This document shows positions 6,949 through 35,890 of a DNA stretch of 64,000 nucleotides, piece by piece; the first letter of the stretch is position 1, and every line of letters begins with the position of its first letter. Location: NCBI GenBank assembly GCA_964555935.1, contig CAZKUN010000007.1, positions 22,474-86,473 of the forward strand, written 5' to 3'. The notes beneath the pieces are model-generated. The model was not told where the DNA came from, searched no databases, and saw only the letters and a list, made by a program, of their open reading frames with translations. A program made the translations under genes and the position numbers. The DNA is from an uncultured Armatimonadia bacterium. GTDB taxonomy: Bacteria; Armatimonadota; Zipacnadia; Zipacnadales; VGFC01.

Positions 6949-7095
6949 GGCTCATTCCCCCCGTCCGAGATCGGTTACGCCCGCCTTCTCTAGCCCCGAC
7001 CAAAGACCTCCGCCAGCCCATCGCTCGCGGGCAGTGACAATCACATTGGTGAAAACTCGCGGATTCACGGTATACACGTACCAGTACCGAGTGCA

Positions 7096-11800: not shown

Positions 11801-12203
11801 GGCCTGGCAACCCGCGCAGAGCCGTCGTGTTCGACAGCGGCTCTTCCCCGAGCGGCGCCGCCGTATCGAGGTCGTGCATCCACGCCCACTCGCCCGGCGC
11901 GAGCGGCAGAGACAGCCGCACGGTGAGGCCCCGATCCACGCCCGAGGTGTCGGCCAGGCGGACGCGAATCTGGGTCGGCCGGCCAGCCGCTTCCTCGTCC
12001 GGCGGAGCGTAGATGACGGACAGATCCAGCCCGCTCCCCTCCGGCGTGGCGCTGAGTTCGCCGCCATCGGTGAGCTTTGTCGCGGAGTCAGATATGCTGA
12101 ACGCCTGCTGCTCGGCGACGTCGACGATCGTCCACTCAAGGTCTGTCGGTTGCGCGAACGACGCCGTGGCAGCGAGTATCAGGCTGAACATGAGCGCCTC
12201 CAT
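8808..12203 (-). CDS. large secreted protein with CBM4/9-like module and C-terminal F5/8 type C (discoidin) domain
   Basis: Signal peptide MFSLILAATASFAQP. Internal segment resembles CBM_4_9. C-terminus resembles a discoidin domain (GAHWIELRF...IRLW). Start trimmed to MEALMF at 12203. Confidence 0.7.
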   Translation of the reverse strand: MEALMFSLILAATASFAQPTDLEWTIVDVAEQQAFSISDSATKLTDGGELSATPEGSGLDLSVIYAPPDEEAAGRPTQIRVRLADTSGVDRGLTVRLSLPLAPGEWAWMHDLDTAAPLGEEPLSNTTALRGLPGLPYFDDEAEKPEYGRYSTYPLGAVEKGGEYLALARDMRQLALVRFSAVGGDSPRLSAEVDLALSEFTDPSREAEFELIYVAGPAAEGRSMREALARTNRVGGSASGPLGWRDYGGWMPFADLGKIQNVDEFGFGFQEGGANASFDDNLGAETFVYFHCAGEFANVDGYERGSEPQPSYEDVVAAFEVVAKGHTGLEGTWETCGIQTAEGRIAYRAERTYGDFFCQACVDPDLPYGKAMADRLLARVNAEEWPAGIDGVYYDGIAAGLDYAPEHLRAADHLLLWDGTLGRPVNYNLWSSVEWARHIHEQLNIPGLTPVRKKTMLNDSSLASFPFVGPYIDVPGAEMSIYLRRDTCRLIRGLLGSKPFCTLVKGDFDQITQAQLETYMRRCTAYAILFGFFDITPSGANPGSSYWVHPEWYDRDRALFRRYMPVARELLVASWDAVPIGQITEGDAFVESFGPMEAPHYISTGSDLAEEHLQYLTLSTDPRADVAEAQAQRVVLDDIPYRGEADPKPPLLGVELLTGRVERIAGTLATEMTGEDLQVWAVGYPIPQARAALRRAADVAKRRNAYVSACREGREQLAPWAPYRAGASIGSPGRGSDHCLRVEKDEAGAAGATQTVTVNHEEPRDIVVSAWSKAEGVTGDPNNNYAVYVDCYYTDGTAIYGQTIEFATGTHDWERGEIAIAPEKPIRNINVYVLFRGGHTGTAYFDDVHVALAEAPEDGLLSRPGFEGGGEPRPLAGTSAEAERLVELCAQIGGGADARFDQLDWDARFAALDEMDQIVQGTDWGADTERARRDAEDLRFHTELAKACVEAKARPPQRASRLTELVALSAPRVTTGPKQYKATTGKMPQGTIVVVEGNFGGYTPTVLTDGKINPKTPDWTKVAWASNEHQGAHWIELRFPAPTRVTQIRLWAGLDGKTLHVPRQLVAEAPRDDAWAAVAGQTFGAGGEAGLVTIQLPGDPVRRVRILQPAGKGSKDRPDLMWLSEIEVVTR

Positions 12204-12303
12204 TGGGGGGTGGATACCACTTCTCCCCCCGATTCCCATCGCCTCCTGTCATTCTCGTGCAGGCAAGGTGGGCGGCTCGCGTCGAATACTCAGGCCGTGT
12301 GAG

Positions 12304-14628: not shown

Positions 14629-14642
14629 TTGAGAGGCAAGCA

Positions 14643-15743
14643 ATGACATCACGCGAACGCATGATCACCGCCATGTTGAACGAGCAGCCGGACATGGTGC
14701 CCGTCGCGCCCGATACCTCGAACATGATCCCCTCCCGGCTGACTGGGAAGCGGTTCTGGGACGTGTATCTCTACAAGGATCCGCCGCTGTGGCAGGCCTA
14801 TATCCACACCTGCAAGCACTTCGGCTTCGACGGCTGGCTACCCAGCATCGGCGCGCAGACGCGCATGCAAAACGTCGCAATCGTTAAGCGTACCGATGAA
14901 CGGATCGTCGTTCAGCCCTATTCCGAGGCGAACGGCAAGCGCGCCTGGGTCCCGCTGGTTCACGTTTACTACGTCGCCGACCCGCCGACCCACAACGTCC
15001 CTTGTGAGAGGATCGGCCTGCCGCGCGTGCCGGAGACTTGGGAGGACTTCGTCGACGAGTCGGAGGAGTTGACGGAGGAGGAAGCCCTGCGCGCCGCTAG
15101 AGAGTTGATGGGGGACGCGGGCGTACTTGGGATGAATGTCGGCATCCCCGGCCTGCACGGGGAGGCGGGGATCTACGAGTATTACGATGACTACACGACC
15201 GTGAAGGACCGCGCGCTGGCGCACGAGCAGACCGTTGAGGAACGCGCGCGCCAGGTCTGTGAGATGGGGCCTGACTTCGTCTTCATCGGTTACTCGGGGT
15301 GTCTCACGTTCCAGACGCCGGAGATGTTCCGAGACCTCGGCCTTCCGAGCCTTCAGATCATCACGCGCGTCGCGAAGGAGTATGGCCTCCCCAGCCAGAT
15401 TCACTCCTGCGGGCCCGAGGCGGCGCTGGTGGAGATCGCCGCGAAGGAATCGGACCTCACGAACATCAACCCGCTTGAGCGCCCGCCAATGGGCGACTGC
15501 AAGCTCGATGAGATCAAACGCGACTTCGGCGCGGACATCAGCCTCATGGGCAACCTCCACACGACGGAGGTCATGCTCCACGGGACGCCCGATCTCGTGC
15601 GCGAAGAGAGCAAGTGGTGTCTCGATGTCGCGGCTGAGGGTGGCGGGTTCATCCTCTCGACCGGCGACCAGTGCGGGCGCGATACTCCGGACGAGAACAT
15701 CCATGCCATGATCGAGGTGGCGAGAGAGTGTGGGAAGTACTGA
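14643..15743 (+). CDS. uroporphyrinogen decarboxylase (URO-D)-like family protein (MtaA/CmuA-like methyltransferase fold)
   Basis: URO-D-like length and conserved pattern. RBS gagagg 5-6 nt before ATG 14643. ORF-track GTG 14625 overlaps the upstream stop. Confidence 0.7.
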   Translation: MTSRERMITAMLNEQPDMVPVAPDTSNMIPSRLTGKRFWDVYLYKDPPLWQAYIHTCKHFGFDGWLPSIGAQTRMQNVAIVKRTDERIVVQPYSEANGKRAWVPLVHVYYVADPPTHNVPCERIGLPRVPETWEDFVDESEELTEEEALRAARELMGDAGVLGMNVGIPGLHGEAGIYEYYDDYTTVKDRALAHEQTVEERARQVCEMGPDFVFIGYSGCLTFQTPEMFRDLGLPSLQIITRVAKEYGLPSQIHSCGPEAALVEIAAKESDLTNINPLERPPMGDCKLDEIKRDFGADISLMGNLHTTEVMLHGTPDLVREESKWCLDVAAEGGGFILSTGDQCGRDTPDENIHAMIEVARECGKY

Positions 15744-21124: not shown

Positions 21125-21368
21125 GGTCTCTCACCGATCCTGCTCAGAAGTGTGTTGGCGCGTCGAGCCGCGTAGCGACGGGCTTCCAGCCCGTCGGCCG
21201 TGCGGTATCGCCTCGCATTGCCAAGTATACGTTGGGAAGCGCCTCAGGGGCACAGTATATTTCCGCGCCGATTACGAGTCAACCGGGGTCCGCCGCCCCA
21301 CGCGGAAGGTCCATACCCCCATTCACCCGAACCTCCCGCCGCTGTCGAATGCCCTTCTGTTGAGGTCA

Positions 21369-21938
21369 ATGACCATGCGCAAGGTACTGCTTGTGATCGG
21401 CGACGCCGCGGAGGTCACCGATACGTTGTACCCCTACTTCCGCGTCCAGGAAGACGGCTACGAGTGCGTCGTCGCTGCGCCGGAGAAGCGCGTCTATCAT
21501 CTCGTCCAGCACGACCTGCACCCGGACTGGGACATTACGATCGAATCGAAGGGCTACAACTTCCCTAGCGACATCGCGTTCCGCGACATCGACTGCGACG
21601 AATATACCGGCCTGATCATCTCGGGCGGGCGCGCGCCGGAGTACTTGCGCTACGACCAGGATCTCATGGCCGTCACGCGCCACTTCGCCGAGACGGGCAA
21701 GCCCATCGCCTCCGTTTGCCATGGCATCGAGATCATCGCCGCCGCCGATATCATCAAGGGCCGGCGCGTCACGACCGTCGCCAAGTGCCAGTATGACGCT
21801 GAGTTCTCCGGCGGCATCTACGAGGACAGCGAGGTCGTCGTCGACGGCAACCTCGTGACCGCCCGCACGTTCTGGGACAACGCGCCGTGGATGCGCGAGT
21901 TCATGAAGATCCTGAACGCCGCCCGCGACGCTTCGTAA
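21369..21938 (+). CDS. DJ-1/PfpI family protein (class I glutamine amidotransferase-like)
   Basis: VLLVIGD N-terminus and nucleophile elbow IASVCHG. Size about 190 aa. ATG 21369 (MTMRKVLL). Confidence 0.8.
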   Translation: MTMRKVLLVIGDAAEVTDTLYPYFRVQEDGYECVVAAPEKRVYHLVQHDLHPDWDITIESKGYNFPSDIAFRDIDCDEYTGLIISGGRAPEYLRYDQDLMAVTRHFAETGKPIASVCHGIEIIAAADIIKGRRVTTVAKCQYDAEFSGGIYEDSEVVVDGNLVTARTFWDNAPWMREFMKILNAARDAS

Positions 21939-23167: not shown

Positions 23168-23971
23168 ATGCTATCGCTCGTCGTCACCACATCCCGGGCG
23201 GAGAACCCGCAACTGCATCCCATCTGTCAGATGTGGGCTGAGCGGTTGCGCGTCCCCTTTGTCATCCGGCGGGATCGCTCCGTCGCCGCGATCTGTCGCG
23301 ATGAGGGCGTCGACGGTACGCTGGTGATCTCGGTCGACCGGCCGCCCACGTTCCTCTCAGCCGACCAAAGCATCCGGTACTACTACCACCCGGGCATGGC
23401 GCTGACGCGCATCCGCAACATCGTCCGCGGCATGGGCGATCCGATGGTTCGCGCGATGAAACTCGGTGAGGGAGACAGCGTCCTCGACTGCACGCTCGGC
23501 CGGGCATCGGACGCGCTCGTCGCGGCGCACGTGGTGGGCGAGACCGGGCGCGTGGTCGGGTTCGAGGCCTCGCCGGTGCTTGCTGAGCTGACCATTGACG
23601 GGCTGAAAGTCTACGAGCCCACCAAGGCAGCGCTCGCGCCCGTTTTCCGCGCCATCGACGCGCGCTCGGGCGATGCTCGCGAGTTCCTCCGCGAGTCCGA
23701 TGACGGGAGCTTCGATGTTGTCTACTTCGACCCCATCTTCGGTGATCCGGTAGACGCCTCGTCGCAGATGCAACCGCTGAGACCGCTGGCGGACCCGCAG
23801 CCGCTGGCGCCCGAGACGGTCGTCGATGCCCGCCGCGTGGCGCGGCGCTCCGTGGTCATTAAAGAGCGCGTCGAGGCCTCGCTGTGGGCGGAGCTGGGCA
23901 TCGTTGACATCTTCCGCGGCAACAAGAGCACCATTGCCTACGGCGCGCTTCCGGCCGTGGGCGCAGACTGA
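23168..23971 (+). CDS. class I SAM-dependent methyltransferase, RsmJ (16S rRNA m2G1516) -like
   Basis: Matches RsmJ/YhiQ blocks by recall: VLDCTLGRASDA, VVGFEASPVLAELTIDGL, VVYFDPIF. Start at MLSLVV (23168). Confidence 0.65.
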   Translation: MLSLVVTTSRAENPQLHPICQMWAERLRVPFVIRRDRSVAAICRDEGVDGTLVISVDRPPTFLSADQSIRYYYHPGMALTRIRNIVRGMGDPMVRAMKLGEGDSVLDCTLGRASDALVAAHVVGETGRVVGFEASPVLAELTIDGLKVYEPTKAALAPVFRAIDARSGDAREFLRESDDGSFDVVYFDPIFGDPVDASSQMQPLRPLADPQPLAPETVVDARRVARRSVVIKERVEASLWAELGIVDIFRGNKSTIAYGALPAVGAD

Positions 23972-23980
23972 GAGGCAGAA

Positions 23981-24265
23981 ATGGCTATTCGCGCGCTTCT
24001 GATTCATCCTGATGATCACGTTGCGGTTGTCACTGAAGACGTCGCTGTTGGCGACGCGGTGCTCGCCGAATCGTCCTCGGGATCCATCGAGATCACCGCT
24101 ACGATGGAGATCCTCGCCGGCCACAAGATCGCGGCGCGCGCCGTCGCGACGGGCGAGCCCGTTCTGAAATACAGTGAGAAGATCGGCCTCGCGATCCAGG
24201 ACATCGCCGTCGGCGACCATGTCCACATGCACAACCTCGCTAGCGACCGGGTGAAGGTGGACTGA
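23981..24265 (+). CDS. SAF-domain protein (UxaA/altronate dehydratase N-terminal small-subunit-like)
   Basis: 94 aa. IHPDDHVAVV...GHKIAARAV..GEPVLKY...IAVGDHVHMHNL pattern of SAF domain. Confidence 0.6.
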   Translation: MAIRALLIHPDDHVAVVTEDVAVGDAVLAESSSGSIEITATMEILAGHKIAARAVATGEPVLKYSEKIGLAIQDIAVGDHVHMHNLASDRVKVD

Positions 24266-24304
24266 GCGCCGCAGCGAAGGGCCGACGCCACAGGAGTTCG
24301 ATCC

Positions 24305-24544
24305 GTGCAAGATGAGTTGCCGTTTGACATCCCAGAGCCTCAGAAGCGCAAGCGCCGCCCGCGCCGGAAGCGCCGGGTCGTCTCGCCCAAGCGCGTGCCG
24401 GTGCAGCTCGCCATGTTCCGGGTGCCCGATCTCACGAAGTGCGGCTTCTGCGGCGTCGCCGTCACGGTGCTCGAGGAGATGGCCGCTTGCCAGGAATGTG
24501 GGGGGATAATTACGCGCCCCGAGCCTGATGACTTCGACGACTGA
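24305..24544 (+). CDS. small highly basic protein with C-terminal CxxC...CxxC zinc-ribbon and acidic tail
   Basis: 79 aa. GTG start with aggag 9 nt upstream. KRKRRPRRKRR stretch, then CGFCG...CQECGG, then PEPDDFDD. Stop is 12 nt before the radical SAM gene. Confidence 0.5.
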   Translation: MQDELPFDIPEPQKRKRRPRRKRRVVSPKRVPVQLAMFRVPDLTKCGFCGVAVTVLEEMAACQECGGIITRPEPDDFDD

Positions 24545-24556
24545 CGGAGGCCCCCA

Positions 24557-25600
24557 ATGCCCAACCCCGAGCCCGATCGAAGCGTCCCCATCGCGGAAGT
24601 CATCGAGCAAGTCGGCGTCGCCCGCGCCATCCAGATCAAACATGTCGCCAGTGTCCTCTACACCTATCGCTGCACCCTCCGCTGCCGCCACTGCCTCTTC
24701 AACTGCGCGCCTGATCGGCCTAACGTCCACGTCAGCCTGGAGGACGGGCTTGACTTCCTCCGCCAACTCCACGCGACAGGCCGCTGCATACACATCGCCG
24801 GCGGCGAGGCGTTGATGTACTACCACGAAGTGCTGGAGTTGTGCCGCGAGGCCGACAGGGAAGGCATCGCGCCGCACTTCATCGAGACGAACGCCACCTG
24901 GTGTGTCAACGGGGACGTCGCCCGCAAGCGCCTGCTTGAACTGCAGGACGCCGGCGTGCAAGGACTGCTTATCAGCGCCTGCCCGCACCATCAGCACGAG
25001 TGCCCGCCGGAGCGTTTCCGCACGTGTTACGAGACGGCCGTTGAGGTCTTCGGTGACCGCAATGTTGCGTCGTCTGACGTGCCGATGGAGACGCTGCGCA
25101 ATTACCACGAGATAGCCATGGACGACGAGAAGCTAGGCGAGTATGTCCGGCTCAACAACCCCTGCCTGGTCGGCCGCGCGGGGGAGCGCCTCGCGCGGTA
25201 CCTGCCGGAGCGGCCCATCGACGACCTCGCGCATGACAGCATGTGGAAGGGCGCCAGCGAGGATGCATCGTGTCGCAAGGAGTTCGACGGGCACGACATG
25301 TGGGAGATCCACATCGACCCGTACGGCAACTACCAGACTTGCTGCGGGATCATCTTCGGGAACACCAAGAACGAATCCCTCGCCGAGGTCCTCGAGCGTG
25401 GCGTCCATACCGCGAATCCTCTGACGGCCGCCGTCCACGCGAAGGGGCCGATGGGTCTGCTTGAGATAGCCGTCGAGAAGGGCTACCAGCCCCGCGAGGG
25501 CTACCAGCAGAAGTGCGGCATGTGCTGGGAGATCCGCAAGTTCCTCCGGCCCTTCTATCCAGACATCCTTGGCCCTGCTGAGATCTACCAGGGCGACTAG
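24557..25600 (+). CDS. radical SAM enzyme with SPASM/twitch-like C-terminal region
   Basis: CxxxCxxC (CTLRCRHC). C-terminal IDPYGNYQTCCG resembles the SPASM v-D-P-x-G-x-v-x-P-C block. Further Cys pairs (CGMC). ggagg RBS. Confidence 0.8.
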   Translation: MPNPEPDRSVPIAEVIEQVGVARAIQIKHVASVLYTYRCTLRCRHCLFNCAPDRPNVHVSLEDGLDFLRQLHATGRCIHIAGGEALMYYHEVLELCREADREGIAPHFIETNATWCVNGDVARKRLLELQDAGVQGLLISACPHHQHECPPERFRTCYETAVEVFGDRNVASSDVPMETLRNYHEIAMDDEKLGEYVRLNNPCLVGRAGERLARYLPERPIDDLAHDSMWKGASEDASCRKEFDGHDMWEIHIDPYGNYQTCCGIIFGNTKNESLAEVLERGVHTANPLTAAVHAKGPMGLLEIAVEKGYQPREGYQQKCGMCWEIRKFLRPFYPDILGPAEIYQGD

Positions 25601-25672
25601 CGCCCTCCCTTTCGCTCCCCAGATGGCACTGCTGCCGCTCCCAGGCGTTGAAGGTTCTGTGGAGGCGTTACC

Positions 25673-26905
25673 ATGAAACACCTGCGGCGCGCGTTCCTCG
25701 TGGCGGCGGCGATCTTTGCGGGCACGATGCTCGCGGCCGACCCGATCGAGATGGCTGGCGGCCGACGCCAGCGCATGAATGGCTATGTCGTTCTTCACCT
25801 CGAAGGCACCCCAGAGCAGATGGGCCGACAGCACGGCCTCTTGATGAAGTCCGAGGTCCAGCGGATGATTCGCGACCTGCTGCTAAAGGGCGAGTGCGAT
25901 ACCGAGGCCGAGCATCGCCGGCTAGTCAAGGGCGCGATGGTGATGGAGAAGTACCTCGGCCGCGAGTACCGTCAGGAGTTGCGGGCGCTGGCCGACGCGG
26001 CCGACGTCGAGTACGAGGACCTCGTTCTCGCTCAGCTCTTCGGCGACGTTCAACGCGCGAGCAAGAAGAGCTACTCCACGTCCTCCTCCAGCGACGATGA
26101 CTTCAGCGGCAGCGACCCCTGGCAGTGCACGTCCTACGCCGTCTTTGGGCCCGCCACAGCGACCGGCGAGTGCATCGTCGGTCGCAATATGGATTTCTGG
26201 GACCAGGGAGTCAGCGAGTGGGGCGCCGTGCTCATCCACTTCAAGCCTGACAATGGTATCCCGTTCGTCACCACCTCGTGGGCCGGCATCGTCAACGGCT
26301 GGACCGCGATGAACTTGGAGGGAGTCGTCAGCGCGAACAACAGCTCCTTCGACGGCAAGTCTGACTCCCTCGAGGGCATCAGCACCTGCTTCATGGTCCG
26401 CAAGATTGCCCAGTTCGCCCATGATGTCGAGGAGGGCGTGCAGATCATCAAAGACACCCCTCGCTCCTGCGGGACGAACATCATCGTCGCCGGTGGGAAT
26501 CCCGCCAACGCGGCGATCGTCGAGTTCGACCACGAGGAAGTCGCCGTCCGCTGGGCTGAGAATGGCGCTATTTGCGCGGCCAACGATTTCGAGAAGCTAT
26601 ACCAACGCGAGTCGGCAACCGGCTACACGTCGTACTACTCGCGCGCGGGTCGGCTCCGCGAACTGATCGAGGAGAACTTCGGCGAGATCACCCGTGGCGA
26701 CAACTTCGCTGCCGCCGAGGGCGTGCCGCTGCGCTACATCAACCTGCACTCGGCGCTGCTGTTTCCGAAGGACCTCCGCTTCAACGTCTCGATGTCGCTC
26801 AAGCCCGCGGCCGACCATTGGTATCGGCCCTTCCGCCTCACGCCCAATGGCGTCGAGCCCGTCCCCCTCGATGAGGGATGGAGGGAGACGCTGCCGACTC
26901 CGTGA
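25673..26905 (+). CDS. secreted C45-family Ntn-hydrolase (acyl-CoA:6-APA acyltransferase-like)
   Basis: Signal peptide. Internal nucleophile context WQCTSYAVFGP...GRNMDFWD typical of autoproteolytic C45/AAT-like enzymes. Confidence 0.65.
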   Translation: MKHLRRAFLVAAAIFAGTMLAADPIEMAGGRRQRMNGYVVLHLEGTPEQMGRQHGLLMKSEVQRMIRDLLLKGECDTEAEHRRLVKGAMVMEKYLGREYRQELRALADAADVEYEDLVLAQLFGDVQRASKKSYSTSSSSDDDFSGSDPWQCTSYAVFGPATATGECIVGRNMDFWDQGVSEWGAVLIHFKPDNGIPFVTTSWAGIVNGWTAMNLEGVVSANNSSFDGKSDSLEGISTCFMVRKIAQFAHDVEEGVQIIKDTPRSCGTNIIVAGGNPANAAIVEFDHEEVAVRWAENGAICAANDFEKLYQRESATGYTSYYSRAGRLRELIEENFGEITRGDNFAAAEGVPLRYINLHSALLFPKDLRFNVSMSLKPAADHWYRPFRLTPNGVEPVPLDEGWRETLPTP

Positions 26906-26916
26906 ATCTGGGGTCC

Positions 26917-27855
26917 ATGACACCTCGCGAGCGCGTTCTGACAGCGTTGGCTCACGAAGAGCCCGACCGCGTCCCCCACAACCTCCGGCCCTCCCATGAG
27001 TTGCTGACGATGCTCTCTGAGCGCGTGAGTGAGGTCGATTTCTCCGAGCACTTCGCTCACGACGTCCGCTTCGTACACATCCCCCTCGCTCCCAAGCCCG
27101 ACGACGTGCCCGACATCGACTGGGCGCCCGAGCCGTCGGCCGAGGCCATCGCCGAGGTCGCCAAGGTCGTCGATGCGTTCCACGAGCGGGGCTTGGCGGT
27201 CTGCGGTGGCTACGCGTGCGGCGTCTACGAGCAGGCGAAGCACTGGCTCGGCGACGAGGCCACGATGATGGGGCCACACGACGACCCCGCTAAGTTCGGC
27301 GAGTTCCTCGACCGAATCACCGAGTGGAAGGCCGCCGTCTATGGCGGCTACGCGGCGGCGGGCACGGACATCGTCTGGATGGGCGATGACCTCGGCTCGC
27401 AGCGCTCGCTCATCATGAGTCCCGAGCATTACCGCGAGTGGTACAAGCCTCGCCACGAGAGAATTGCGGACTACATCCGCTCCATCAGTCCCGACGCGAA
27501 GGTCGCCTTCCACTGCTGCGGCCACGTGACGCCGCTGGTCCGCGACCTCATCGAGGTCGGCATCGACGTGCTTGAAGCCGTCCAGGCCGAGACGATGGAT
27601 ATTGCCCACCTCAAGCGCGAGTTCGGTGCGGACATCTCGTTCTGGGGCGGCGTCGGTGCGCAAAGCGTCCTCGCCCGCACCACGCCCGAGCAAGTCACCG
27701 AGGGCGTTCGCGAGACGCTCCGCATCATGGCGCCCGGCGGTGGCTACATCGCGGCGCCGTGTCACACGCTGACCGACGAGGTGCCGTGGGAGAGCGTCAT
27801 CGCCTTCCACCAGACCATCACCGACCACGGCACGTACCCAAATCCGGGAGGATAG
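26917..27855 (+). CDS. URO-D-like family protein (paralog 2)
   Basis: MTPRERVLTALAHEEPDRVPH N-terminus and overall URO-D-like architecture. Start at ATG 26917. Confidence 0.7.
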   Translation: MTPRERVLTALAHEEPDRVPHNLRPSHELLTMLSERVSEVDFSEHFAHDVRFVHIPLAPKPDDVPDIDWAPEPSAEAIAEVAKVVDAFHERGLAVCGGYACGVYEQAKHWLGDEATMMGPHDDPAKFGEFLDRITEWKAAVYGGYAAAGTDIVWMGDDLGSQRSLIMSPEHYREWYKPRHERIADYIRSISPDAKVAFHCCGHVTPLVRDLIEVGIDVLEAVQAETMDIAHLKREFGADISFWGGVGAQSVLARTTPEQVTEGVRETLRIMAPGGGYIAAPCHTLTDEVPWESVIAFHQTITDHGTYPNPGG

Positions 27856-27858
27856 CCC

Positions 27859-29007
27859 ATGCCCGAAACACTCACCCACCGCGACCGCCTGCTCCGCTCC
27901 GCAAGGGGCGAATCGGTTGACCGCGTGCCCATCGATCCGCCGATCGCCTTCGACCGCATCGCGTGGGACGAGAAGGGCTCAGACGCGGCGCCGCATGGAG
28001 ATCCGCTGTGGGTTGAGGTCGCGGAGCGGTGCGCCGAGCACTGCGATGTCTTCGTCGGAATGCCCGCGTGCGGCGCGCTGTTTGATCGGCGCTTCCTCCT
28101 CACGCCGGGCAAGTTCATTGAGCGCCTGCCGGTGGAGAAAGAGGGCGAGTGGACCGTCATCAGGCACGTCGTCCACACGCCCAAGGGCGACCTCACCACC
28201 ACCGACAAGATCCAGGCCGGCGTCTCAACGGGTTGGTACACGGAGCCGCTGGTGAAGACGCCCGATGACGCCGAGGCGCTTCTCAGCGTTCCCTACGAGT
28301 TCACTCCCGTCGACCTCTCGCCGGCCAGGAGTTACGTCGAGAAGGTCGGCGACCGAAGCGTCGCCCACATTGGTGTCTCGACACCCCTTGTCAGCGTCTC
28401 GCGGCTGATGCACTTCGACGAACTGCTGCTGTGGTGCCATACCGAGCGTGAACTCGTGCATCGACTGATCGACACGATGACCGAGCGGATCGAACTGGGG
28501 CTGAGGTACGTGCTCGACGCGGGGCTGGGCGAGATGATGTGGCTCGGCGGATCAGAGCAGGCCACGCCGCCGATGATGGGGCCGGAGATGTACGACGAGT
28601 TCGTGACCCAGTACGACAGCCGGATCATCGACCTCATGCACAATTACGATGGCTTGGTCCATGTCCACTGTCACGGGAAGATCTCGGGGATTCTCGACCG
28701 TCTGCTCGACATGGACGTCGACATGACCGATCCTGTCGAGCCGCCACCTGATGGCGACATCACCATGGCCGAGGCCAAGAAGCGTTGCGCCGGCCGCATG
28801 ACTCTGATGGGCAACATCGAGTTCCGCGAGCTTGAGTTCTCCTCACCCAAGCGCATCCGCGAACTTATCAGGACCGCCATCCTCGACGGCGGCGCGGAGC
28901 GGACGTACCTCTACCCATCCGCCACGCCGATCCAGGCCCTCACGCCACAATACCGCGACAATGCCATTGCCTACATCGAAGCCGGCCTCGAGTTTGGCGC
29001 CTCGTAG
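27859..29007 (+). CDS. URO-D-like family protein (paralog 3)
   Basis: LTHRDRLLRSARGESVDRVPIDPP N-terminus typical of the URO-D/MtaA-like family. 3-nt gap after previous gene. Confidence 0.7.
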   Translation: MPETLTHRDRLLRSARGESVDRVPIDPPIAFDRIAWDEKGSDAAPHGDPLWVEVAERCAEHCDVFVGMPACGALFDRRFLLTPGKFIERLPVEKEGEWTVIRHVVHTPKGDLTTTDKIQAGVSTGWYTEPLVKTPDDAEALLSVPYEFTPVDLSPARSYVEKVGDRSVAHIGVSTPLVSVSRLMHFDELLLWCHTERELVHRLIDTMTERIELGLRYVLDAGLGEMMWLGGSEQATPPMMGPEMYDEFVTQYDSRIIDLMHNYDGLVHVHCHGKISGILDRLLDMDVDMTDPVEPPPDGDITMAEAKKRCAGRMTLMGNIEFRELEFSSPKRIRELIRTAILDGGAERTYLYPSATPIQALTPQYRDNAIAYIEAGLEFGAS

Positions 29008-29038: not shown

Positions 29039-31630
29039 CTACTCCACGCTCACGCTGCCGTGGACTGTGAAAGCCTCGATCAGGCGGCCCGTGTGCCACC
29101 CGATCGCGTAGGCGGCGAACTCCACCGCGTATTCACCTCGTGGCAGGTCGGCGTTGTCCTCGGGGTGGTAGCGGAATCGGGCCCGGCTCTGCTCGGTGAT
29201 GGGAGCGCCGCGTCGGAGCACGTGCGCGTCGTTGATCTGCCCACGCAGGGCGATCTCGGCCTTGCTTCCGTCCGTCGCAGTTCCTACCACCGTCAGCGTT
29301 GAGTGACTCCCTTCGGCGTACCATCCCCGTACGGCAGGCGAGTAGGCCGAGGAGGCCAGTACCCTCTCGCGGTCCACCGGCACGTAGTAGTGGACGCCGC
29401 TCTTGCCTTCCATAATTTCCTGAGCATAGTCAATGCTCGATTCGCCGAGGGCGAGCTTCTTCGTGCTGATGAAGGCGGTCGGGTCGCCCAGCTCTCGCCA
29501 TTGGTTCGGGTCACGCCCAGGAGCGGCCGTCGGCGTGCTGGTCAGAGCCTGGTAGTACCTGCCGTCCCGGCTGTAAGTGTGGCCGAGTTCGATCTCGAGG
29601 CTCGGCGTGTAGCGATGAATGCGGCCGTAGTAGTCCTCCATCGCTCCTTGCAGCGCCTCCGGCTCGAGGTACCCGTTGGGCACGAGGATGGCCTGCATGT
29701 CCCGAAGTCGCAGGGCTGCCTGGCCGAGGTCGTGGTCCTTGCCGACAATGATCGGTGGCGGCATTTCACGCTCGAGCGGCTCCAGCGCGCGGCTGTCCAG
29801 CGTCACCCGCGTGTCGCCGTCTCCGTAGTTCAGTTCGGCGCGCGCGTGTGACGTCGCCGCGTCCAGGTTGATGTGAAACTGGTTCATCACGCTGTCGTTC
29901 AGGCGCGTGTCGGGAAGCGGGAAGCTGAGGACGTTGCCGTCGGCGTCGGTCACGTCAAGCGTGCAGCGCGAGGCGGCCAGTTGGGGGCTGTGCCCGCGGA
30001 TGGTCTCCGGGCTGAACACGTTGCCCCAGTTGCCGTGGAGCGCGGGGTAGATGTAGGAGGTGAGCGCGTGCTCCGGCTCTGGGTCGTACACGCCCACGAG
30101 TGTCATCACGGGCACGCCGATCTTGTCGGGCTTCGGCGTGGGGGCGTCGAGTTCGACCATCCGCTGGCTGTCGGGATCCCAACGGCTGTAGCCGGTGGAG
30201 CTGGCGCTGTCGAGCACTCCGGATTGGGCCGTGATATTGGCCTGGATCAGCTTTAACGAGTACGGCGTGTGGTGGGTGAACACGCTGGTGGGTCCCATGG
30301 GCGCTCCGCCGGCCATGGCATCCCTGCCGAAGAGGTAGGGGATGTCGCCCTCGACGGCTCCGCCATTCCAGGCCACGTTAGCGACGAGACGGTGCTTGAA
30401 CAGGTTGTAGCCCCACCCGCCATTGCGCGCGTGGTTGCTCAGCTCGCCGCCTGGGTAGTGCCCGAGCCCGTGGTCGTGGCCGTACTCATGCGAGTATTCG
30501 TTGCCGGTTGTGGACTGCAGCGTGAGCTGTCCGCCGCCGCCGCTGAGGCCGTGGACCACGAACTGATCCTGCGGATTGCCGTCGTCATCGATCCTCGTGT
30601 AGACGCCTGCGCTCGTGTGGAGCGTTGTTTGGCGGTAAGGACGCGGCTGATCCTGGTTGCCGCCGACAGTCGCGAGCACGCCGACGTTGGCGTTGTTGAT
30701 GCCGGTTGAGACCATCCCCTTGGCAATGTTCTCGCGCATGTCGCCGGCGTAGACGCCCGCTCCTTCGAACGTGCTGCGCTGGGTGTAGACGTTCCCGTTC
30801 GGCAGCACCACCTTCTCAAAGTGGATCGGGAGGTACTGAGCGGCCACGAACTTGGCGATGGGCACGGTCTGGAAGTAGTCGAGCGCGAGCTCCGCGGCGA
30901 TGCTGCTGCCGGGGCGTGACCACTGGTTGGTCGGGACGTTGGCCGGGTCGGTCAACATGCCCAGTTCTATGTTCTGGACCACCAACTCGATGGGAGCGCC
31001 GAACTCAAAGGCGTCAGCCGGCAGCGTGGCGCTCTGTCCGGCAGCGTTTCGCACGGTGATACTCATGCCGGGATGCATGAAAGTCCAGGGGATCACGGCG
31101 TTCCAGGCTCGCTTGTTGAAGACCATCGGCTTGCGGCCGTCGGTGTTATTGAAGTCACTGTGAGCGCCGTTCTCGGGTGGCAGCAGGTCGAGGGTCAAAC
31201 TCTCGCCCCGGCTGTTGACGATGATCGCTTGCAGCTCCTGGTGGTCGGAATCGACGGGGGTGAAGAGAACGTAGGCGCCCCGATCGGTCACCAAAAGCGG
31301 CCGTTCCTGGTCTGCTCGATTCGGGCCTACGAGAGTGCTCTGAAGGAAGGCGATCTCGCCGTTCAGCTCGCCCTCGACATTGGGTGTCAGGGGCAGATTG
31401 GCAGTGAAATCGATGGCCTCGGCCCAGTAGGGCGGTTCGGCCGGCGGGGCCGGCCTCGCTCGGCGCGCTGCCTTGCGTCCGCGGCCACCGTAGGGGCGCC
31501 GGCGTTCCTGGGCGCCAACCCGGCCAACCAGTACACAGCCGGTCAGCATCACGAGGGAGATCATCACAACGCACGCGCGACGCAACGTCGCTCCAATCTG
31601 GTGGTATCGGGGATGCGCGCGTCCGGTCAT
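29039..31630 (-). CDS. secreted zinc metallopeptidase, M66 (StcE)-like HExxHxxGxxH
   Basis: Motif SHEYGHDHGLGH. N-terminal hydrophobic segment (MISLVMLTGCVLVG, possible lipobox). About 860 aa. Confidence 0.65.
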   Translation of the reverse strand: MTGRAHPRYHQIGATLRRACVVMISLVMLTGCVLVGRVGAQERRRPYGGRGRKAARRARPAPPAEPPYWAEAIDFTANLPLTPNVEGELNGEIAFLQSTLVGPNRADQERPLLVTDRGAYVLFTPVDSDHQELQAIIVNSRGESLTLDLLPPENGAHSDFNNTDGRKPMVFNKRAWNAVIPWTFMHPGMSITVRNAAGQSATLPADAFEFGAPIELVVQNIELGMLTDPANVPTNQWSRPGSSIAAELALDYFQTVPIAKFVAAQYLPIHFEKVVLPNGNVYTQRSTFEGAGVYAGDMRENIAKGMVSTGINNANVGVLATVGGNQDQPRPYRQTTLHTSAGVYTRIDDDGNPQDQFVVHGLSGGGGQLTLQSTTGNEYSHEYGHDHGLGHYPGGELSNHARNGGWGYNLFKHRLVANVAWNGGAVEGDIPYLFGRDAMAGGAPMGPTSVFTHHTPYSLKLIQANITAQSGVLDSASSTGYSRWDPDSQRMVELDAPTPKPDKIGVPVMTLVGVYDPEPEHALTSYIYPALHGNWGNVFSPETIRGHSPQLAASRCTLDVTDADGNVLSFPLPDTRLNDSVMNQFHINLDAATSHARAELNYGDGDTRVTLDSRALEPLEREMPPPIIVGKDHDLGQAALRLRDMQAILVPNGYLEPEALQGAMEDYYGRIHRYTPSLEIELGHTYSRDGRYYQALTSTPTAAPGRDPNQWRELGDPTAFISTKKLALGESSIDYAQEIMEGKSGVHYYVPVDRERVLASSAYSPAVRGWYAEGSHSTLTVVGTATDGSKAEIALRGQINDAHVLRRGAPITEQSRARFRYHPEDNADLPRGEYAVEFAAYAIGWHTGRLIEAFTVHGSVSVE

Positions 31631-31775: not shown

Positions 31776-32825
31776 CTACTCTCCTACCGGCTTGCTCGTT
31801 ATCAGCCCAATCCCCCGCCCCTTGTCGCCGACCGCGCAATAGTGCATGTAGTGCATGTCGGTCCTTGGATCATGCACCAGCGAGATCTTGTGGGCGTATG
31901 TCCGGTCGATCCCGCTCGGGTTCCCGCCGGCCTTGTAGAGCGGCTCCGGGTGAACGGTCCAACCGCGCAAGTCGGGCGAGAACGCCGCCATAATGTGCGC
32001 GCCGCCTCGCCCCACACCGAAGTAGAACATCACCCAGTGGTCGCCGTCGCGGAAGACCTTGCCGTCCGAGCAGAATGCCTCGTCATACCCGCCGGGCGTG
32101 TTGCGGACAATCGGGTTGTCGGCGTGTCGCGTCCAGTTGAGTAGGTCGCCTGAGGTAGCGAGGCCCATCTGCTCCGTGCCGCCGTTCGCGGCGTTGTAGA
32201 AGTTCAGGAACTCGCCCTCATGCTCCACCAGCCACGGCTGGTAGATGCAGTCCTTCTCCCATTCGCCGACCTCGGGCTCGTGTACTGAGAGGATGTAGCT
32301 CTCCTTGGCCCTGCGCCACGTCAGCCCGTCGTCGCTGCAGGCCACGCCCTCGTAGCCCGGCCGAAGTTCGTAGCCTCCCTGCCGAGGGTAGGCGCCGTAG
32401 AGCGACCAGTAGACGCCGTCCCGCTGCTTCAACACTCGCGGCGAATCGATGTCATACGATTCGTACAGATACGCCCCCAGCACGCGGCCGCCATTGTCGA
32501 ATTCGCCCCCCGGTCCATACCCCATCGCGAGGCGCGGGTCGGTCCAGCTGACAAGGTCGGTGCTCTCGGCCACGAACGACTGGTATCCCTGCCCATCGAA
32601 CCCGATGAAGCTCATGTACCAACGCTCGTCGCCGGGGATCTGATAGACCGTCGGGCAGTCGACCATATGCACGCCATCGAAGCCGGGGATGCCCGGATCA
32701 GCGGGGATCACGTGCTCCGGGTAGTAGTGCCAGTTCCGGTACGGCTCAGACCAGGCGTCAAGTGTCGCCATGTCGATGGCCCCCGTCGGCAGCAGGTTCA
32801 GGAGCAGGGCTGTCGCGAGTCCCAT
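31776..32825 (-). CDS. 5-bladed beta-propeller glycoside hydrolase/phosphorylase-like (GH43/GH130-like)
   Basis: Repeated W/Y/G-rich blades, DNPIV and DG motifs, about 350 aa. Start placed at MGLATA (32825) just past the upstream sulfatase stop. Confidence 0.5.
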   Translation of the reverse strand: MGLATALLLNLLPTGAIDMATLDAWSEPYRNWHYYPEHVIPADPGIPGFDGVHMVDCPTVYQIPGDERWYMSFIGFDGQGYQSFVAESTDLVSWTDPRLAMGYGPGGEFDNGGRVLGAYLYESYDIDSPRVLKQRDGVYWSLYGAYPRQGGYELRPGYEGVACSDDGLTWRRAKESYILSVHEPEVGEWEKDCIYQPWLVEHEGEFLNFYNAANGGTEQMGLATSGDLLNWTRHADNPIVRNTPGGYDEAFCSDGKVFRDGDHWVMFYFGVGRGGAHIMAAFSPDLRGWTVHPEPLYKAGGNPSGIDRTYAHKISLVHDPRTDMHYMHYCAVGDKGRGIGLITSKPVGE

Positions 32826-32827
32826 GA

Positions 32828-34327
32828 TTACGCTCCCGGCGGGCGCGAGTACTCCCACCCCGCATGCAGCCACGAACTCAGCTCCGTGCACAACTCCTGG
32901 TTCTCCGCGCGGTCTGCGATGTTCACGTTCTCGCCCGGATCGTCTTGGTGATCGTATAGCTCCCGCGCCAGCACCCTCTGCTCGTCCTCGATCCACTCGG
33001 TGTACCGATACCGGTCCGTCCGCATCGAGTACCCCATCTTGTTTCGGCCGCGCGGGTATTGGCTGAACGCCGCGCGCTTCCACTCGCGGGTCGGATCGTC
33101 CATCAGCGGCGCGAGGCTCGTCCCCTCAAGGTGATCCGGCAGCGCCAGCCCGGCCAGCTCCGTGACCGTCGGGTAGATGTCTACGAACTCACACAGCGCG
33201 TCCGTCGGCTGGCCCTTCGCCTTCTGGTCGGGCGAGGCGATGAGTAGCGGTGAGTGAGTGCTTGTCTCGTAGTTGCAGTGCTTGCACCAGAGCCCGTGTT
33301 CGCCGAGTTGCCAGCCGTGGTCGCCCCAGAATGCGATGACCGTGTTCTCCCGCAGACCGAGCGCATCCAGTTCATCCATCAGCCGTCCGAGTTGCGCGTC
33401 GATGAAGCTCACGCAGGCGTAGTAGCCGTGGATCAGCTCGCGCGCCTGCTCATCGCTAAGCGGGCCCTTCTTCGGGATCTGATGGTACTGGCGCAGCTCG
33501 CCCCAGGTGTGCAGCGCGATATCGGGCGCTCCCTCGGGGCGGAACGGGTTGTCGGCGAGGTTGATCTCATCGCGCGGGTAGAGGTCCCAGTAGCGCTTCG
33601 GAGCCGCGAAGGCGAGGTGAGGTTTCAGGAAGCCGACGCCCAGGAAGAAACTCTCTTCAGCCTCCTTGTGCGCGCGGAGCGCCTCGATCGCCTTGTCTGC
33701 GATCTGGCCATCGGCGTAGGCGTTGTCGGGCAGGTCGCCGGCTTCGGTGGCGGGGCCGCGCACGCGCTTGCGCTTCTCCGGATCCGTTTCGGCCTTGCGA
33801 AGTCGGTCGAGTAGCGCCAGGTTCTCCTCGGTCACGACTCCGGGGAACTGGTTCTGCGCGACCCATGGTTCAGACGACCATCCAGGGGGATCCTCGCGCT
33901 TGCCATGGTGGTAGATCTTCCCCAGCGACGTGCTGATGTACCCGTTCTCGCGGAAGAGCTGTGGCAGCGTCATGACGTCGGGCATCGTCGTGCGCAGCGG
34001 CGTTTGGAGGTCATGCACGCCCGTCGTGTTCGGTCGGCACCCGCTCAGCACGCTCGCCCGCGATGGCGCGCAGACGGCTTGCTGACAGTACGTCCGCCGA
34101 AACAGCGTCCCTTCGGCGGCCAGCCGGTCGATGTTCGGCGAGACGATCTGGCTGTGCCCGTGACATTTGAACTGCGGCCTGAGATCATCGACCGCAATGA
34201 AGAGCACGTTGTGGCCCGGCCGCTCCCGGCGTCGCGCTTTCAGTCCGCCGGCCATCGCCAGCGCCCCAACGCCGATTCCCGTCACCCCCATCGCTATCGC
34301 CTCCCGTCGAGTGACCCTCGTTGCCAT
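32828..34327 (-). CDS. arylsulfatase family (Cys-type, Tat signal)
   Basis: Formylglycine motif CAPSRASVLSG. Tat-type N-terminus RREAIAMGVTGIGVGALA. Start at MATRV (34327). Confidence 0.85.
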   Translation of the reverse strand: MATRVTRREAIAMGVTGIGVGALAMAGGLKARRRERPGHNVLFIAVDDLRPQFKCHGHSQIVSPNIDRLAAEGTLFRRTYCQQAVCAPSRASVLSGCRPNTTGVHDLQTPLRTTMPDVMTLPQLFRENGYISTSLGKIYHHGKREDPPGWSSEPWVAQNQFPGVVTEENLALLDRLRKAETDPEKRKRVRGPATEAGDLPDNAYADGQIADKAIEALRAHKEAEESFFLGVGFLKPHLAFAAPKRYWDLYPRDEINLADNPFRPEGAPDIALHTWGELRQYHQIPKKGPLSDEQARELIHGYYACVSFIDAQLGRLMDELDALGLRENTVIAFWGDHGWQLGEHGLWCKHCNYETSTHSPLLIASPDQKAKGQPTDALCEFVDIYPTVTELAGLALPDHLEGTSLAPLMDDPTREWKRAAFSQYPRGRNKMGYSMRTDRYRYTEWIEDEQRVLARELYDHQDDPGENVNIADRAENQELCTELSSWLHAGWEYSRPPGA

Positions 34328-34435
34328 GCTCCGTCCCTCCGTGCGTTCTGGCCTTATCTTATTGCGCGGGAGGAAGCGCCGCACCTTCGGCCGAAGTCGG
34401 TGCCATCCGGCGACGCCGCACGAGGGAGCCTCCCC

Positions 34436-35890
34436 ATGAGCGACCGGCCGAACATCCTCCTCATCATGTCCGACCAGCATCACCCGCACGTCCTTGGGTG
34501 CGAGGGCGACAGCGTCGTCCGCACGCCGAACCTCGACGGGCTGGCCGGTCGCGGCGTGCTGTTTGAGAACTGCTATTGCCCTAGCCCTCTCTGCGTGCCG
34601 TCGCGGATGAGCTTCATGACCTCCCGTCACCCGCACCGCAACGAGGTCTGGACAAACGCTTGCTCGTTGCCCTCGGACGTGCCCACCTTCGCCCACGCGC
34701 TTGGCGCCGCGGGATACGAGACCGTCCTCGGCGGGCGGATGCACTTCGTTGGGGCGGACCAGCGCCACGGCTTCGAGAAGCGCCTCATCGGCCAGCTCTG
34801 CTCCGGTCACATCGGCGGCCGCAATCGGGGGATCCTAGACGAGCTGTTTCCCGGAGCGGGTCAGAGCCTCCCGGCCGTTCAGATCTCAGGCCCAGGTCGC
34901 ACCGGTTACCAGGCCTACGATGAGGCCGTCACTGAGGGCTGTACCGAGTTCCTCCGCGACCGCTCGGACGACCGCCCGCTGTGCCTGGTGGCGGGATTCG
35001 TCATGCCCCACTGCCCGTTCATTTGCCCGCCCGATGACTGGGACTACTACCTCGACCGCGTCACGCTGCCCGACGTGCCCGATGGCTACCACGAATCGCT
35101 CCACCCGGCCATGAGGCGCTGGCGCGAAGGCCGCCGCGTTGTCGATCTCACCGATGACGAGATTCGGCGCGCGCGTGCGGGTTACTATGGGCTCGTCACT
35201 CACCTCGACCGCATGGTCGGCGAGCTGCTCGATACTCTCAACGAATCCGGTCTGGCCGATAACACCATCGTCATCTACACGAGCGACCACGGGGAAATGG
35301 CCGGCGAGCATGGCATGTGGTGGAAGAGCAGCTTCTACGAGGGCTCGGCATCGGTGCCCCTGATCGTCTCCGCGCCCGGGCGATTCGCGGAGGGCGCGCG
35401 CATGGCTAACATCACTAACCTCATCGACCTGGGGCCAACGATGGCCGACCTCGCCGGCGCGGACCCAATCCCCGGCGTCGATGGTCGCAGCCTCGCGCCG
35501 GTCCTGCGCGGCGAAGCAACCGAGTGGCTCGACGAGACCTTCAGCGAGCACTACCCCTCACAAGGCTTGCCGCCCACGCGCATGATCCGTAGCGGGCCGT
35601 GGAAGCTCACGCACTTTGAGGGGGAGAGGCCGCAGCTTTTCAACCTCGATGACGATCCGGACGAGTGGAGCGATCTCGGCGAGGATCCGGCCCACGCCGA
35701 TGTGCGGGAGCGATTGCAGGCGCGCGTGCTCGAGGGTTGGTCGGGCGAGCACATGGAGCAGACCCTCGCGGCGCGGCAGCAGGGGAATCGTCTGCTGACC
35801 CAGTGGTACCAACGCCTCCGCCCCGAGGAACCCGAGCAGTGGGTCGCCGATGCGGAAGACAACGTCTACCCCGAGGCGCGCATTCCGTAA
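34436..35890 (+). CDS. sulfatase family (Cys-type), no signal peptide
   Basis: PNILLIMSDQ N-terminus and CVPSRMSFMTS formylglycine motif. ORF-track upstream extension is antisense to the neighbouring gene. Confidence 0.85.
   Translation: MSDRPNILLIMSDQHHPHVLGCEGDSVVRTPNLDGLAGRGVLFENCYCPSPLCVPSRMSFMTSRHPHRNEVWTNACSLPSDVPTFAHALGAAGYETVLGGRMHFVGADQRHGFEKRLIGQLCSGHIGGRNRGILDELFPGAGQSLPAVQISGPGRTGYQAYDEAVTEGCTEFLRDRSDDRPLCLVAGFVMPHCPFICPPDDWDYYLDRVTLPDVPDGYHESLHPAMRRWREGRRVVDLTDDEIRRARAGYYGLVTHLDRMVGELLDTLNESGLADNTIVIYTSDHGEMAGEHGMWWKSSFYEGSASVPLIVSAPGRFAEGARMANITNLIDLGPTMADLAGADPIPGVDGRSLAPVLRGEATEWLDETFSEHYPSQGLPPTRMIRSGPWKLTHFEGERPQLFNLDDDPDEWSDLGEDPAHADVRERLQARVLEGWSGEHMEQTLAARQQGNRLLTQWYQRLRPEEPEQWVADAEDNVYPEARIP

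Follow-up and report, generated by a model that had tools for sequence, protein, structure and literature searches.

An EpeE-like radical SAM enzyme in a modular C45 hydrolase and URO-D operon of an uncultured Armatimonadota bacterium

A tight run of genes was analysed in 64,000 nucleotides of contig CAZKUN010000007.1 (assembly GCA_964555935.1, positions 22,474 to 86,473 of the forward strand) from an uncultured Armatimonadia bacterium. This whole stretch is referred to as the window and all coordinates are window positions. The genes of interest encode a SAF-domain protein, a zinc-ribbon mini-protein, a radical S-adenosylmethionine (SAM) enzyme (rSAM), a C45-family hydrolase and two URO-D-like proteins. 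An earlier note, made from the sequence alone, had described these six co-directional open reading frames (ORFs) with their spacers, domains and motifs; all were confirmed by coordinates and hidden Markov model (HMM) matches, and independent gene calls on identical metagenome contigs agreed. The region is best explained as a modular, clade-specific operon and not as a dedicated pathway for a ribosomally synthesised and post-translationally modified peptide (RiPP). The reading we favour, with a probability of about 0.5, is that the rSAM is an accessory enzyme of the radical epimerase type inserted into an operon that probably processes a glycoconjugate. The features are as follows.

21375..21938, + strand: DJ-1/PfpI family gene, first in the same-strand run (PF01965, E 8.8e-34; gene call on the identical contig L007)
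21957..23153, + strand: Gfo/Idh/MocA sugar-type oxidoreductase (PF01408, PF22725, PF02894), 18 nt past the DJ-1 gene
23168..23971, + strand: PF04445 SAM-dependent methyltransferase (42.2 bits)
23981..24265, + strand: 94-aa stand-alone SAF-domain protein (PF08666, 26.8 bits, cut-off 21)
24305..24544, + strand: 79-aa basic Zn-ribbon mini-protein, GTG start
24440..24499, + strand: zinc-ribbon knuckles of the mini-protein, C46-x2-C49 ... C62-x2-C65, kept in 10 of 10 syntenic copies and in the wider family
24557..25600, + strand: 347-aa radical SAM enzyme, EpeE/YydG-like (PF04055, 42.5 bits, cut-off 29.5)
24671..24694, + strand: radical SAM cluster motif C39-x3-C43-x2-C46, invariant in 32 family members and aligning with YydG C14/C18/C21
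25271..25525, + strand: auxiliary-cluster region of the rSAM, with C239, C262, C320 and C323 as predicted ligands, C263 as predicted H-atom donor, and E250
25673..26905, + strand: 410-aa autoproteolytic-type C45-family Ntn hydrolase/acyltransferase, predicted exported (NF040521, 163.8 bits, cut-off 85; PF03417)
26878..27855, + strand: 325-aa URO-D/MtaA-like protein, a short divergent paralogue (PF01208, 86.2 bits, cut-off 23.9)
27859..29007, + strand: 382-aa URO-D-like protein, called UROD2 below (PF01208, 69.6 bits, cut-off 23.9)

From the SAF gene to the last URO-D gene the spacers were 39, 12 and 72 nt, followed by a 28-nt overlap and a 3-nt gap. The tight six-gene run was as described before, but its start was not: the same-strand run, with gaps of at most 72 nt, begins upstream of the SAF gene at the DJ-1/PfpI gene (21375). 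Promoter-like sites were found only near 21232-21261 and 21727-21754. No terminator-like site was found between genes of the run, and matches on the + strand lay only near 28065, inside the last URO-D gene, at a count not above the chance level. Co-transcription, as proposed earlier, is plausible. An Rfam scan of the whole window gave no match, and no cobalamin riboswitch. The source lineage is Armatimonadota rather than Planctomycetota as the note had supposed; a 100%-identical protein is so labelled, and the nearest relatives belong to Armatimonadota/Zipacnadales.

The rSAM carries CTLRCRHC at residues 39-46, IDPYGNYQTCCG at residues 253-264 and CGMC at residues 320-323. C39, C43 and C46, together with the GGE SAM-binding motif (G82-G83-E84), were invariant in 32 sequences of the family, which places the enzyme in the radical SAM superfamily. 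In the same 32 sequences the only conserved C-terminal Cys residues were C239, C262, C263, C320 and C323, and E250 was also invariant. Since the C-terminus holds five Cys only and no CX2CX5CX3C motif, no second auxiliary cluster was assigned.

The C-terminus had been likened to the SPASM/twitch auxiliary-cluster region. The full-length protein matched no SPASM model at normal thresholds and no NCBIfam SPASM model at E<=10. The isolated C-terminus reached 15.5 bits against PF13186 (profile positions 8-44, E 0.022), below the cut-off of 21.5. YydG/EpeE was run as a control in the equal test and scored 14.3 bits, also below the cut-off. Failure of the SPASM HMM is thus uninformative, because the crystallised YydG/EpeE fails likewise. 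A search of PDB sequences with a profile of the 32 family members gave YydG as the sole significant match (E 3.7e-10). A profile of the C-terminal domain gave no match among PDB sequences at E<=10, so that the link to the EpeE C-terminus needed profile alignment with hhalign and fold comparison.

The AlphaFold2 (AF2) model of the rSAM had a pLDDT of 94 and a predicted beta-hairpin at residues 250-269. In a Foldseek search with this model the best nine matches were EpeE chains (8ai1-8ai6), aligned over the full length with E 7e-10 to 5e-9 and TM-scores of 0.53-0.62. Next came the twitch enzymes BtrN (PDB 4M7T) and SkfB (PDB 6EFN), with E 3.9e-5 and 1.5e-4 and TM-scores of 0.35-0.56; PflA ranked 24th or lower (TM 0.25-0.27). 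The rSAM family was aligned with hhalign to YydG, the sequence of which was confirmed by exact look-up, with 97% probability and E 8.6e-11 over 269 columns. The alignment paired C239, C262, C320 and C323 with YydG C206, C222, C289 and C292, the presumed auxiliary-cluster ligands, and C263 with C223, so that the invariant C262-C263 doublet corresponds to C222-C223. E250 was paired with EpeE D210, the residue mutated in PDB 8AI6. In EpeE, Cys223 is the H-atom donor to the substrate radical and stands beside a cluster ligand (PMC5682303, PMC13012085), and in the crystal structure the extended twitch ('T-SPASM') domain carries a single auxiliary cluster (PMC13012085).

The rSAM has the marks of a twitch/T-SPASM enzyme: a hairpin with G257-x4-C262, four Cys for one cluster, and fold matches to twitch enzymes. 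Its C-terminus is accordingly modelled as a SPASM/twitch-type domain with a single auxiliary cluster, of the T-SPASM kind found in EpeE/YydG, and by predicted fold and residue correspondence the enzyme is a distant homologue of this peptide epimerase. The earlier assignment was right in substance for twitch/T-SPASM (Foldseek, hhalign), with the SPASM HMM itself missed, and right also in likening the enzyme to peptide-modifying ones, the nearest characterised relative being the RiPP enzyme EpeE. The rSAM is not a member of the YydG equivalog family: TIGR04078 gave 33.8 bits against a cut-off of 300, over residues 35-158 only, and YydG itself gave 572.5. Among the known EpeE-type twitch/T-SPASM radical SAM enzymes it forms a new and as yet uncharacterised branch.

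Likeness to EpeE/YydG of Bacillus subtilis (PDB 8AI1-8AI6; TIGR04078) extends to the CxxxCxxC and GGE motifs, to one auxiliary-cluster set with the same four Cys positions, a CC doublet and an acidic residue at D210/E250, and to a short ORF directly upstream. Unlike EpeE, to which it is only 15-19% identical, the rSAM has an additional pair of helices at the N-terminus and some 30 residues more in length, its run lacks the EpeX-like hydrophobic peptide, EpeP membrane protease and EpeAB ABC transporter of epeXEPAB, and its family occurs in about eleven lineages without either a precursor gene or a partner gene being conserved. BtrN and SkfB share the single-cluster C-terminal domain on a G-x4-C beta-hairpin, and a DegT-type aminotransferase adjoins the rSAM family at 5 loci (4 distinct), recalling the BtrS/BtrN pairing; the TM-scores are lower (0.35-0.56), no aminoglycoside or sactipeptide genes are present at the locus, and BtrN is a dehydrogenase which, to our knowledge, has no H-donor Cys doublet. 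The N-terminal core weakly matched several models of the SPASM family, AhbD, NirJ and PqqE among them, all below curated cut-offs. Full SPASM domains, as in RiPP maturases and anSME, carry seven or eight Cys, including CX2CX5CX3C, for two auxiliary clusters, in contrast to the five C-terminal Cys found here. The H-GDGT bridge synthase Hbs was rejected as an identity, given the length of 347 aa, the five C-terminal Cys and the absence of an extra N-terminal domain; Hbs proteins have at least 400 aa, an AhbD-like full SPASM domain and an N-terminal COG4001 domain (bioRxiv 10.1101/2023.10.20.563219). An apparent break at 6146-6245 in the rSAM orthologue of locus L155 was attributed to a 100-N scaffold gap with duplicated flanks, an assembly artefact, and that copy was not regarded as a pseudogene.

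The rSAM family was found in 59 other species-representative genomes from about eleven lineages, including Armatimonadota, Poribacteria, Latescibacterota, SAR202 (Chloroflexota), Planctomycetota, the PVC group, Hydrogenedentes, Hadarchaeota and Theionarchaea, and its members are 50-63% identical across phyla of bacteria and archaea. Within 10 kb of the 59 loci tblastn detected neither SAF nor mini-protein, C45 or PF04445 genes, and a search with a mini-protein family HMM was negative at all of 62 other rSAM-family loci (0/62). URO-D genes lay near the rSAM at about 7 of the 59 loci. When neighbours were clustered de novo, no protein family was common to more than 9 of 60 rSAM loci, and 43 proteins encoded in tight co-directional arrangement with the rSAM represented 46 Pfam families, each of them found in 3 proteins at most. 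These tight neighbours include metallo-beta-lactamase fold, FG-GAP, GH10, GH31, melibiase, glycyl radical enzyme (GRE) activase and DegT proteins. No conserved small ORF was recognisable upstream of other family members. With neighbours so heterogeneous and no conserved partner, the rSAM is taken as a stand-alone gene that moves between contexts. In L001 (5692-8077) and L073 (6703-9038, equal to L011) a GH10 xylanase-like gene precedes the rSAM by 4-14 nt, and in L073 a rubrerythrin gene follows the rSAM; these two rSAMs are the closest relatives outside the group of the window (60-63% identity). A literature search on the rSAM family, and on the combination of C45, URO-D and DegT, returned nothing relevant.

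The neighbourhood of the C45 gene was surveyed at 80 C45 loci and on three annotated contigs. The gene orders at related loci were:

L155: mini-protein, rSAM, C45, UROD2
L157: SAF, mini-protein, URO-D, DegT, C45, UROD2, URO-D
L156/L076: sulfatase, mini-protein, URO-D, DegT, C45, GH51, UROD2, URO-D
L078: SAF, mini-protein, URO-D, DegT, C45, GH51, UROD2, URO-D
L079, L080: SAF, mini-protein, C45
L082: methyltransferase, SAF, mini-protein, URO-D, DegT, C45
L072: divergent Cys-type sulfatase, then mini-protein, rSAM, OMP-decarboxylase/HPS-like gene

A core of mini-protein, C45 and one or two URO-D genes was kept wherever C45 identity was at least 65%, often preceded by a methyltransferase-SAF pair, and the flanks differed each time. 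The slot between mini-protein and C45 was empty in 2 lineages, held URO-D and DegT in 6, and was occupied by the rSAM in the window and in L155. The short contigs L070 and L072 likewise have the rSAM behind the mini-protein, but no C45 gene was seen on them. A GH51 arabinofuranosidase was inserted in two variants of the core. The more distant C45 loci (about 40, with 35-57% identity) had none of the core partners. As the core is kept while the flanks differ, mini-protein, C45 and URO-D form the conserved unit; as the slot is alternatively empty or filled by URO-D and DegT, the rSAM is an accessory part and not the centre. Conservation of the gene neighbourhood, a point on which the proposal of the earlier note turned, was thus lacking for the rSAM, with no SAF, mini-protein or C45 gene within 10 kb in 59 genomes, and present for C45 and URO-D. 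Four or more related lineages with differing flanks retain the C45 gene together with the UROD2 orthologue, and for this pair the concern that URO-D genes are merely random neighbours did not hold.

The 79-aa ORF is judged to be a genuine gene from its sequence conservation: in comparisons with six homologues dN/dS was 0.09-0.36 wherever synonymous sites were unsaturated, which was so for five relatives. Homologues were found at nine other loci, and ten syntenic copies were aligned. An exhaustive phmmer search gave 23 representative clusters among 1.84 billion proteins (P0258-P0280); a word-index protein search gave 2 clusters and under-reports the family, for which tblastn and phmmer gave more. 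No Pfam or NCBIfam family was matched above cut-off. One member was mis-named HypA by PGAP, its Zn-ribbon similarity being sub-threshold. Nearly all members have 76-138 aa and one common architecture, consisting of an N-terminal Q-L-x-L-D-L-P-like motif, an Arg/Lys-rich stretch, the Zn ribbon and an acidic tail. The ribbon CG-x-CG...x13...CP-x-CG is nearly invariant and the N-terminal motif is conserved, and the variable part is an acidic tail of 2-10 residues. The N-terminal hexapeptide Q-L-x-L-D-L(P), for example QLSLDLPE or QLGLDLE, resembles what we take to be the bacterial beta-clamp-binding motif QLxLxL. In the clade of the window this hexapeptide is degenerate (DELPFDIP), and a second element, QL[AST][LM]F, stands just before the Zn ribbon.

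No rSAM accompanies the mini-protein in L076-L082, L156, L157 and L159, at least seven lineages. L159 (7568-9720) is from an unrelated bacterium, where a distant homologue, the member named HypA, lies 5' of a neutral/alkaline ceramidase gene and after a 98-aa PII-like ORF that ends an RND efflux operon; the PII-like ORF recurs upstream in L158. Because its Zn ribbon is conserved residue by residue and it precedes different enzymes in different genomes, the mini-protein looks more like an independent factor, with a putative nucleic-acid-binding or regulatory role, than a RiPP precursor.

The SAF protein is similar to the N-terminal part of galactarate dehydratase (TIGR03248, E 4e-8). Orthologues with 55-63% identity are present in L078, L079, L080, L082 and L157, and the pair of PF04445 methyltransferase and SAF genes recurs in L079, L082 and L091.

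The C45 protein passes NF040521 and PF03417, as do members of the acyl-CoA:6-APA acyltransferase family, and its nucleophile Cys152 was invariant in 27 homologues, as expected for a C45 enzyme. A basic and hydrophobic N-terminal leader was seen in the protein and in nearly all homologues, some with a lipobox-like L-x-x-C, and on the basis of this leader the protein is predicted to be exported. The predicted export signal and the lack of a linked beta-lactam or peptide pathway set it apart from acyl-CoA:6-APA acyltransferase. By inspection no such leader was present on the rSAM or the URO-D proteins. A GRE gene adjoins C45 homologues in L095 and L109.

The PF03417 and PF01208 assignments suggested earlier were both matched. 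Each URO-D protein passes PF01208 in the superfamily of MtaA/CmuA and HemE, with the best sub-family similarity to MtaA/CmuA. Neither belongs to MtaA/CmuA proper: scores in this sub-family were 51-72 bits against cut-offs of 235-244, and for TIGR01463 they were 71.9 bits (325-aa protein) and 50.9 bits (382-aa protein) against 235.4. The window ORFs scanned included no corrinoid (B12-binding) protein. The 325-aa protein is only 39% identical to the 421-aa URO-D at the equivalent position in relatives, and UROD2 orthologues with 68-72% identity lie downstream of C45 in L155, L156/L076, L078 and L157. The window holds three URO-D paralogues. The third (372 aa) is overlapped by 4 nt by a FAD_oxidored gene (871-aa ORF) at 12013-15743, another tight URO-D pairing.

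Elsewhere in the window, a metalloprotease with Peptidase_M66 and TagA domains (StcE-like; 29039-31630, - strand) faces the end of the cluster in convergent orientation, 32 nt beyond its final stop codon. Positions 31776-35890 contain two sulfatase genes in divergent orientation and an ORF related to GH130/GH43. An ORF of 1143 aa (8808-12239, - strand) had no Pfam match at E<=1e-3, and one of 526 aa (56547-58127, + strand) had none at E<=1e-4.

Epimerase-type chemistry was considered for the rSAM on its conserved residues and is given slightly less than an even chance. The CxxxCxxC cluster (C39/C43/C46) would cleave SAM, and the 5'-deoxyadenosyl radical would take a hydrogen atom from an sp3 carbon of the substrate. 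Cys263 would give a hydrogen atom back from the opposite face, resulting in epimerisation or a closely related reaction of H-abstraction and H-return, and the auxiliary cluster (C239/C262/C320/C323) would re-reduce the thiyl radical. The mini-protein is likely not the substrate; better candidates are probably small molecules, (amino)sugars for instance, or some substrate that many phyla share. For the operon, processing of a glycan-derived or N-acylated compound is suggested by the GH51 gene in two variants and by the Gfo/Idh/MocA gene upstream in the window. Its most likely role is the processing of a glycoconjugate or N-acylated compound, and its function is probably catabolic. In this scheme the C45 protein would work extracellularly as an exported amidase, and tailoring or catabolic enzymes would work in the cytoplasm.

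Several observations weigh against this interpretation. The epimerase chemistry is deduced from conserved residues only, and twitch enzymes of similar fold carry out dehydrogenation, thioether formation and other reactions. The neighbours from which the glycoconjugate assignment is drawn (GH51, Gfo/Idh/MocA, DegT, GH10, sulfatases) are abundant everywhere in such genomes. The rSAM lies 8-98 nt downstream of the mini-protein in 4 of 4 rSAM-bearing lineages of the clade, including L072, whose remaining neighbours are different, a placement that by analogy would mirror epeX-epeE; because the four rSAMs are 76-100% identical, this may represent a single insertion event. Conservation of the core was limited to relatives whose C45 proteins are at least 65% identical, a pattern also compatible with inherited synteny.

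A wider proposal was also considered and is held to be possible but doubtful. The rSAM would belong to a stand-alone family of radical epimerases, or of enzymes for H-abstraction and H-return, in bacteria and archaea, with the EpeE-type Cys set and H-donor and without a peptide precursor. The substrate could be a carbohydrate or a metabolite of some different kind, or else a peptide or protein shared by these anaerobic glycan-degrading lineages, and the enzyme would here have been swapped in for the URO-D and DegT pair.

Mere juxtaposition, in which six unrelated genes stand side by side in a gene-dense same-strand stretch and the core reflects the inherited synteny of close relatives, is unlikely. 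It would account for the fact that linkage is confined to relatives sharing 65% C45 identity or more, for the absence of the partners from about 40 more distant C45 loci and from 59 rSAM loci, and for the frequency of URO-D paralogues, three in the window alone. It sits poorly with the related loci, at each of which the outer flanks differ and yet mini-protein, C45 and UROD2 keep their order with short spacers. The slot between mini-protein and C45 has been remodelled with the core left intact, and no terminator-like site separates the genes of the run.

The RiPP-like pathway put forward in the earlier note is improbable. In this scheme the rSAM would modify the mini-protein, for example by epimerising the ATVTVL strand or the tail, the C45 protein would be the processing peptidase and the URO-D proteins would perform tailoring. 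The nearest characterised relative of the rSAM is indeed a RiPP epimerase with its precursor gene directly upstream (PMC7026026). The mini-protein gene likewise stands immediately 5' of the rSAM in all four rSAM-bearing lineages of the clade, and variable enzymes behind a conserved small ORF are a pattern also known from RiPP clusters. Co-occurrence, however, did not show precursor, maturase and leader peptidase together: the scheme is unsupported because rSAM and mini-protein occur apart across genomes, with no mini-protein homologue at the 62 other rSAM-family loci, no rSAM in at least seven mini-protein lineages, and a distant mini-protein homologue between an RND efflux operon and a ceramidase gene. 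The mini-protein also appears to lack the layout of leader and core expected of a precursor, its Zn ribbon being conserved almost residue by residue with only the short acidic tail variable. The C45 protein is predicted to be exported, and outside the narrow clade it is unlinked to these genes. No EpeP/EpeAB-like protease or transporter genes were found; TIGR04078 was matched by the rSAM alone among the cluster genes, at 33.8 bits. The rSAM family is 50-63% identical across phyla, archaea included. In our view, conservation to this degree between phyla is unusual for RiPP maturases. Overall, the interpretation in the earlier note was partly supported.

A role of the rSAM as maturase or activase for a protein encoded elsewhere, such as a GRE or a sulfatase, with its position here incidental, was given a low probability. 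At 5 distinct rSAM loci a GRE gene is no more than 3.2 kb away, and in L003 of Latescibacterota (4781-8038) it is directly upstream of the rSAM, 3 nt away. Sulfatase genes are near the rSAM or its operon in the window, L072 and L156; most phyla carrying the family are sulfatase-rich. The high conservation across phyla would also fit a conserved protein substrate. In Poribacteria, however, the gene order is GRE, a canonical activase (radical SAM domain and two ferredoxin motifs), then the rSAM family member as third gene (L020 6843-11023, L065 6840-11023, and L017). No GRE was nearby at 54 of the 59 rSAM loci, the window ORFs scanned included no GRE, FGE or anSME, the 15 NCBIfam matches with E<=0.01 included neither a GRE-activase nor an anSME model, and the fold is EpeE-like and not PflA-like (PflA rank 24th at best, TM 0.27). 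Identity as a GRE activase, raised by the adjacent PFL-like gene in L003 and L005, was rejected on the separate activase of Poribacteria, the GRE count of 5/59 and the non-PflA fold. Identity as anSME was rejected on the lack of an anSME model match (NCBIfam, E<=0.01) and on the one auxiliary-cluster Cys set; sulfatase proximity lends it no support, since such proximity is expected by chance in these genomes.

That the cluster builds a small metabolite or cofactor, with rSAM, DegT, URO-D and methyltransferase as steps and the mini-protein as scaffold or regulator, is equally poorly favoured: radical SAM enzymes, pyridoxal phosphate aminotransferases, methyltransferase-fold proteins and acyltransferase-fold C45 proteins are common in secondary metabolism, DegT and radical SAM enzymes are paired in aminoglycoside and deoxysugar pathways (BtrS/BtrN, DesI/DesII) and BtrN is the second-best fold match, but the C45 protein is predicted to be exported, two variants carry a GH51 insertion, rSAM and DegT are mutually exclusive occupants of one slot in the cluster, and no glycosyltransferase, NDP-sugar synthase, nonribosomal peptide synthetase or polyketide synthase was found among the window genes scanned.

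For annotation, the analysis indicates that SPASM HMM thresholds miss a whole EpeE-like branch, the crystallised EpeE included, and that a small Cys-rich ORF beside a radical SAM gene is insufficient for calling a RiPP cluster. Plain mass spectrometry of the small protein, as proposed in the earlier note, would be blind to epimerisation. As a case of slot-swapping in an operon, the mini-protein, C45 and URO-D core is tractable. If the reading of the rSAM as an accessory radical epimerase-type enzyme is true, EpeE-type radical epimerase chemistry reaches beyond the RiPP operons of Firmicutes, and the arrangement of auxiliary cluster and Cys H-donor occurs in a well-conserved family, apparently without a dedicated precursor peptide. 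The substrate of this family could reveal a new anaerobic route of stereo-inversion for sugars or for a conserved protein or peptide.

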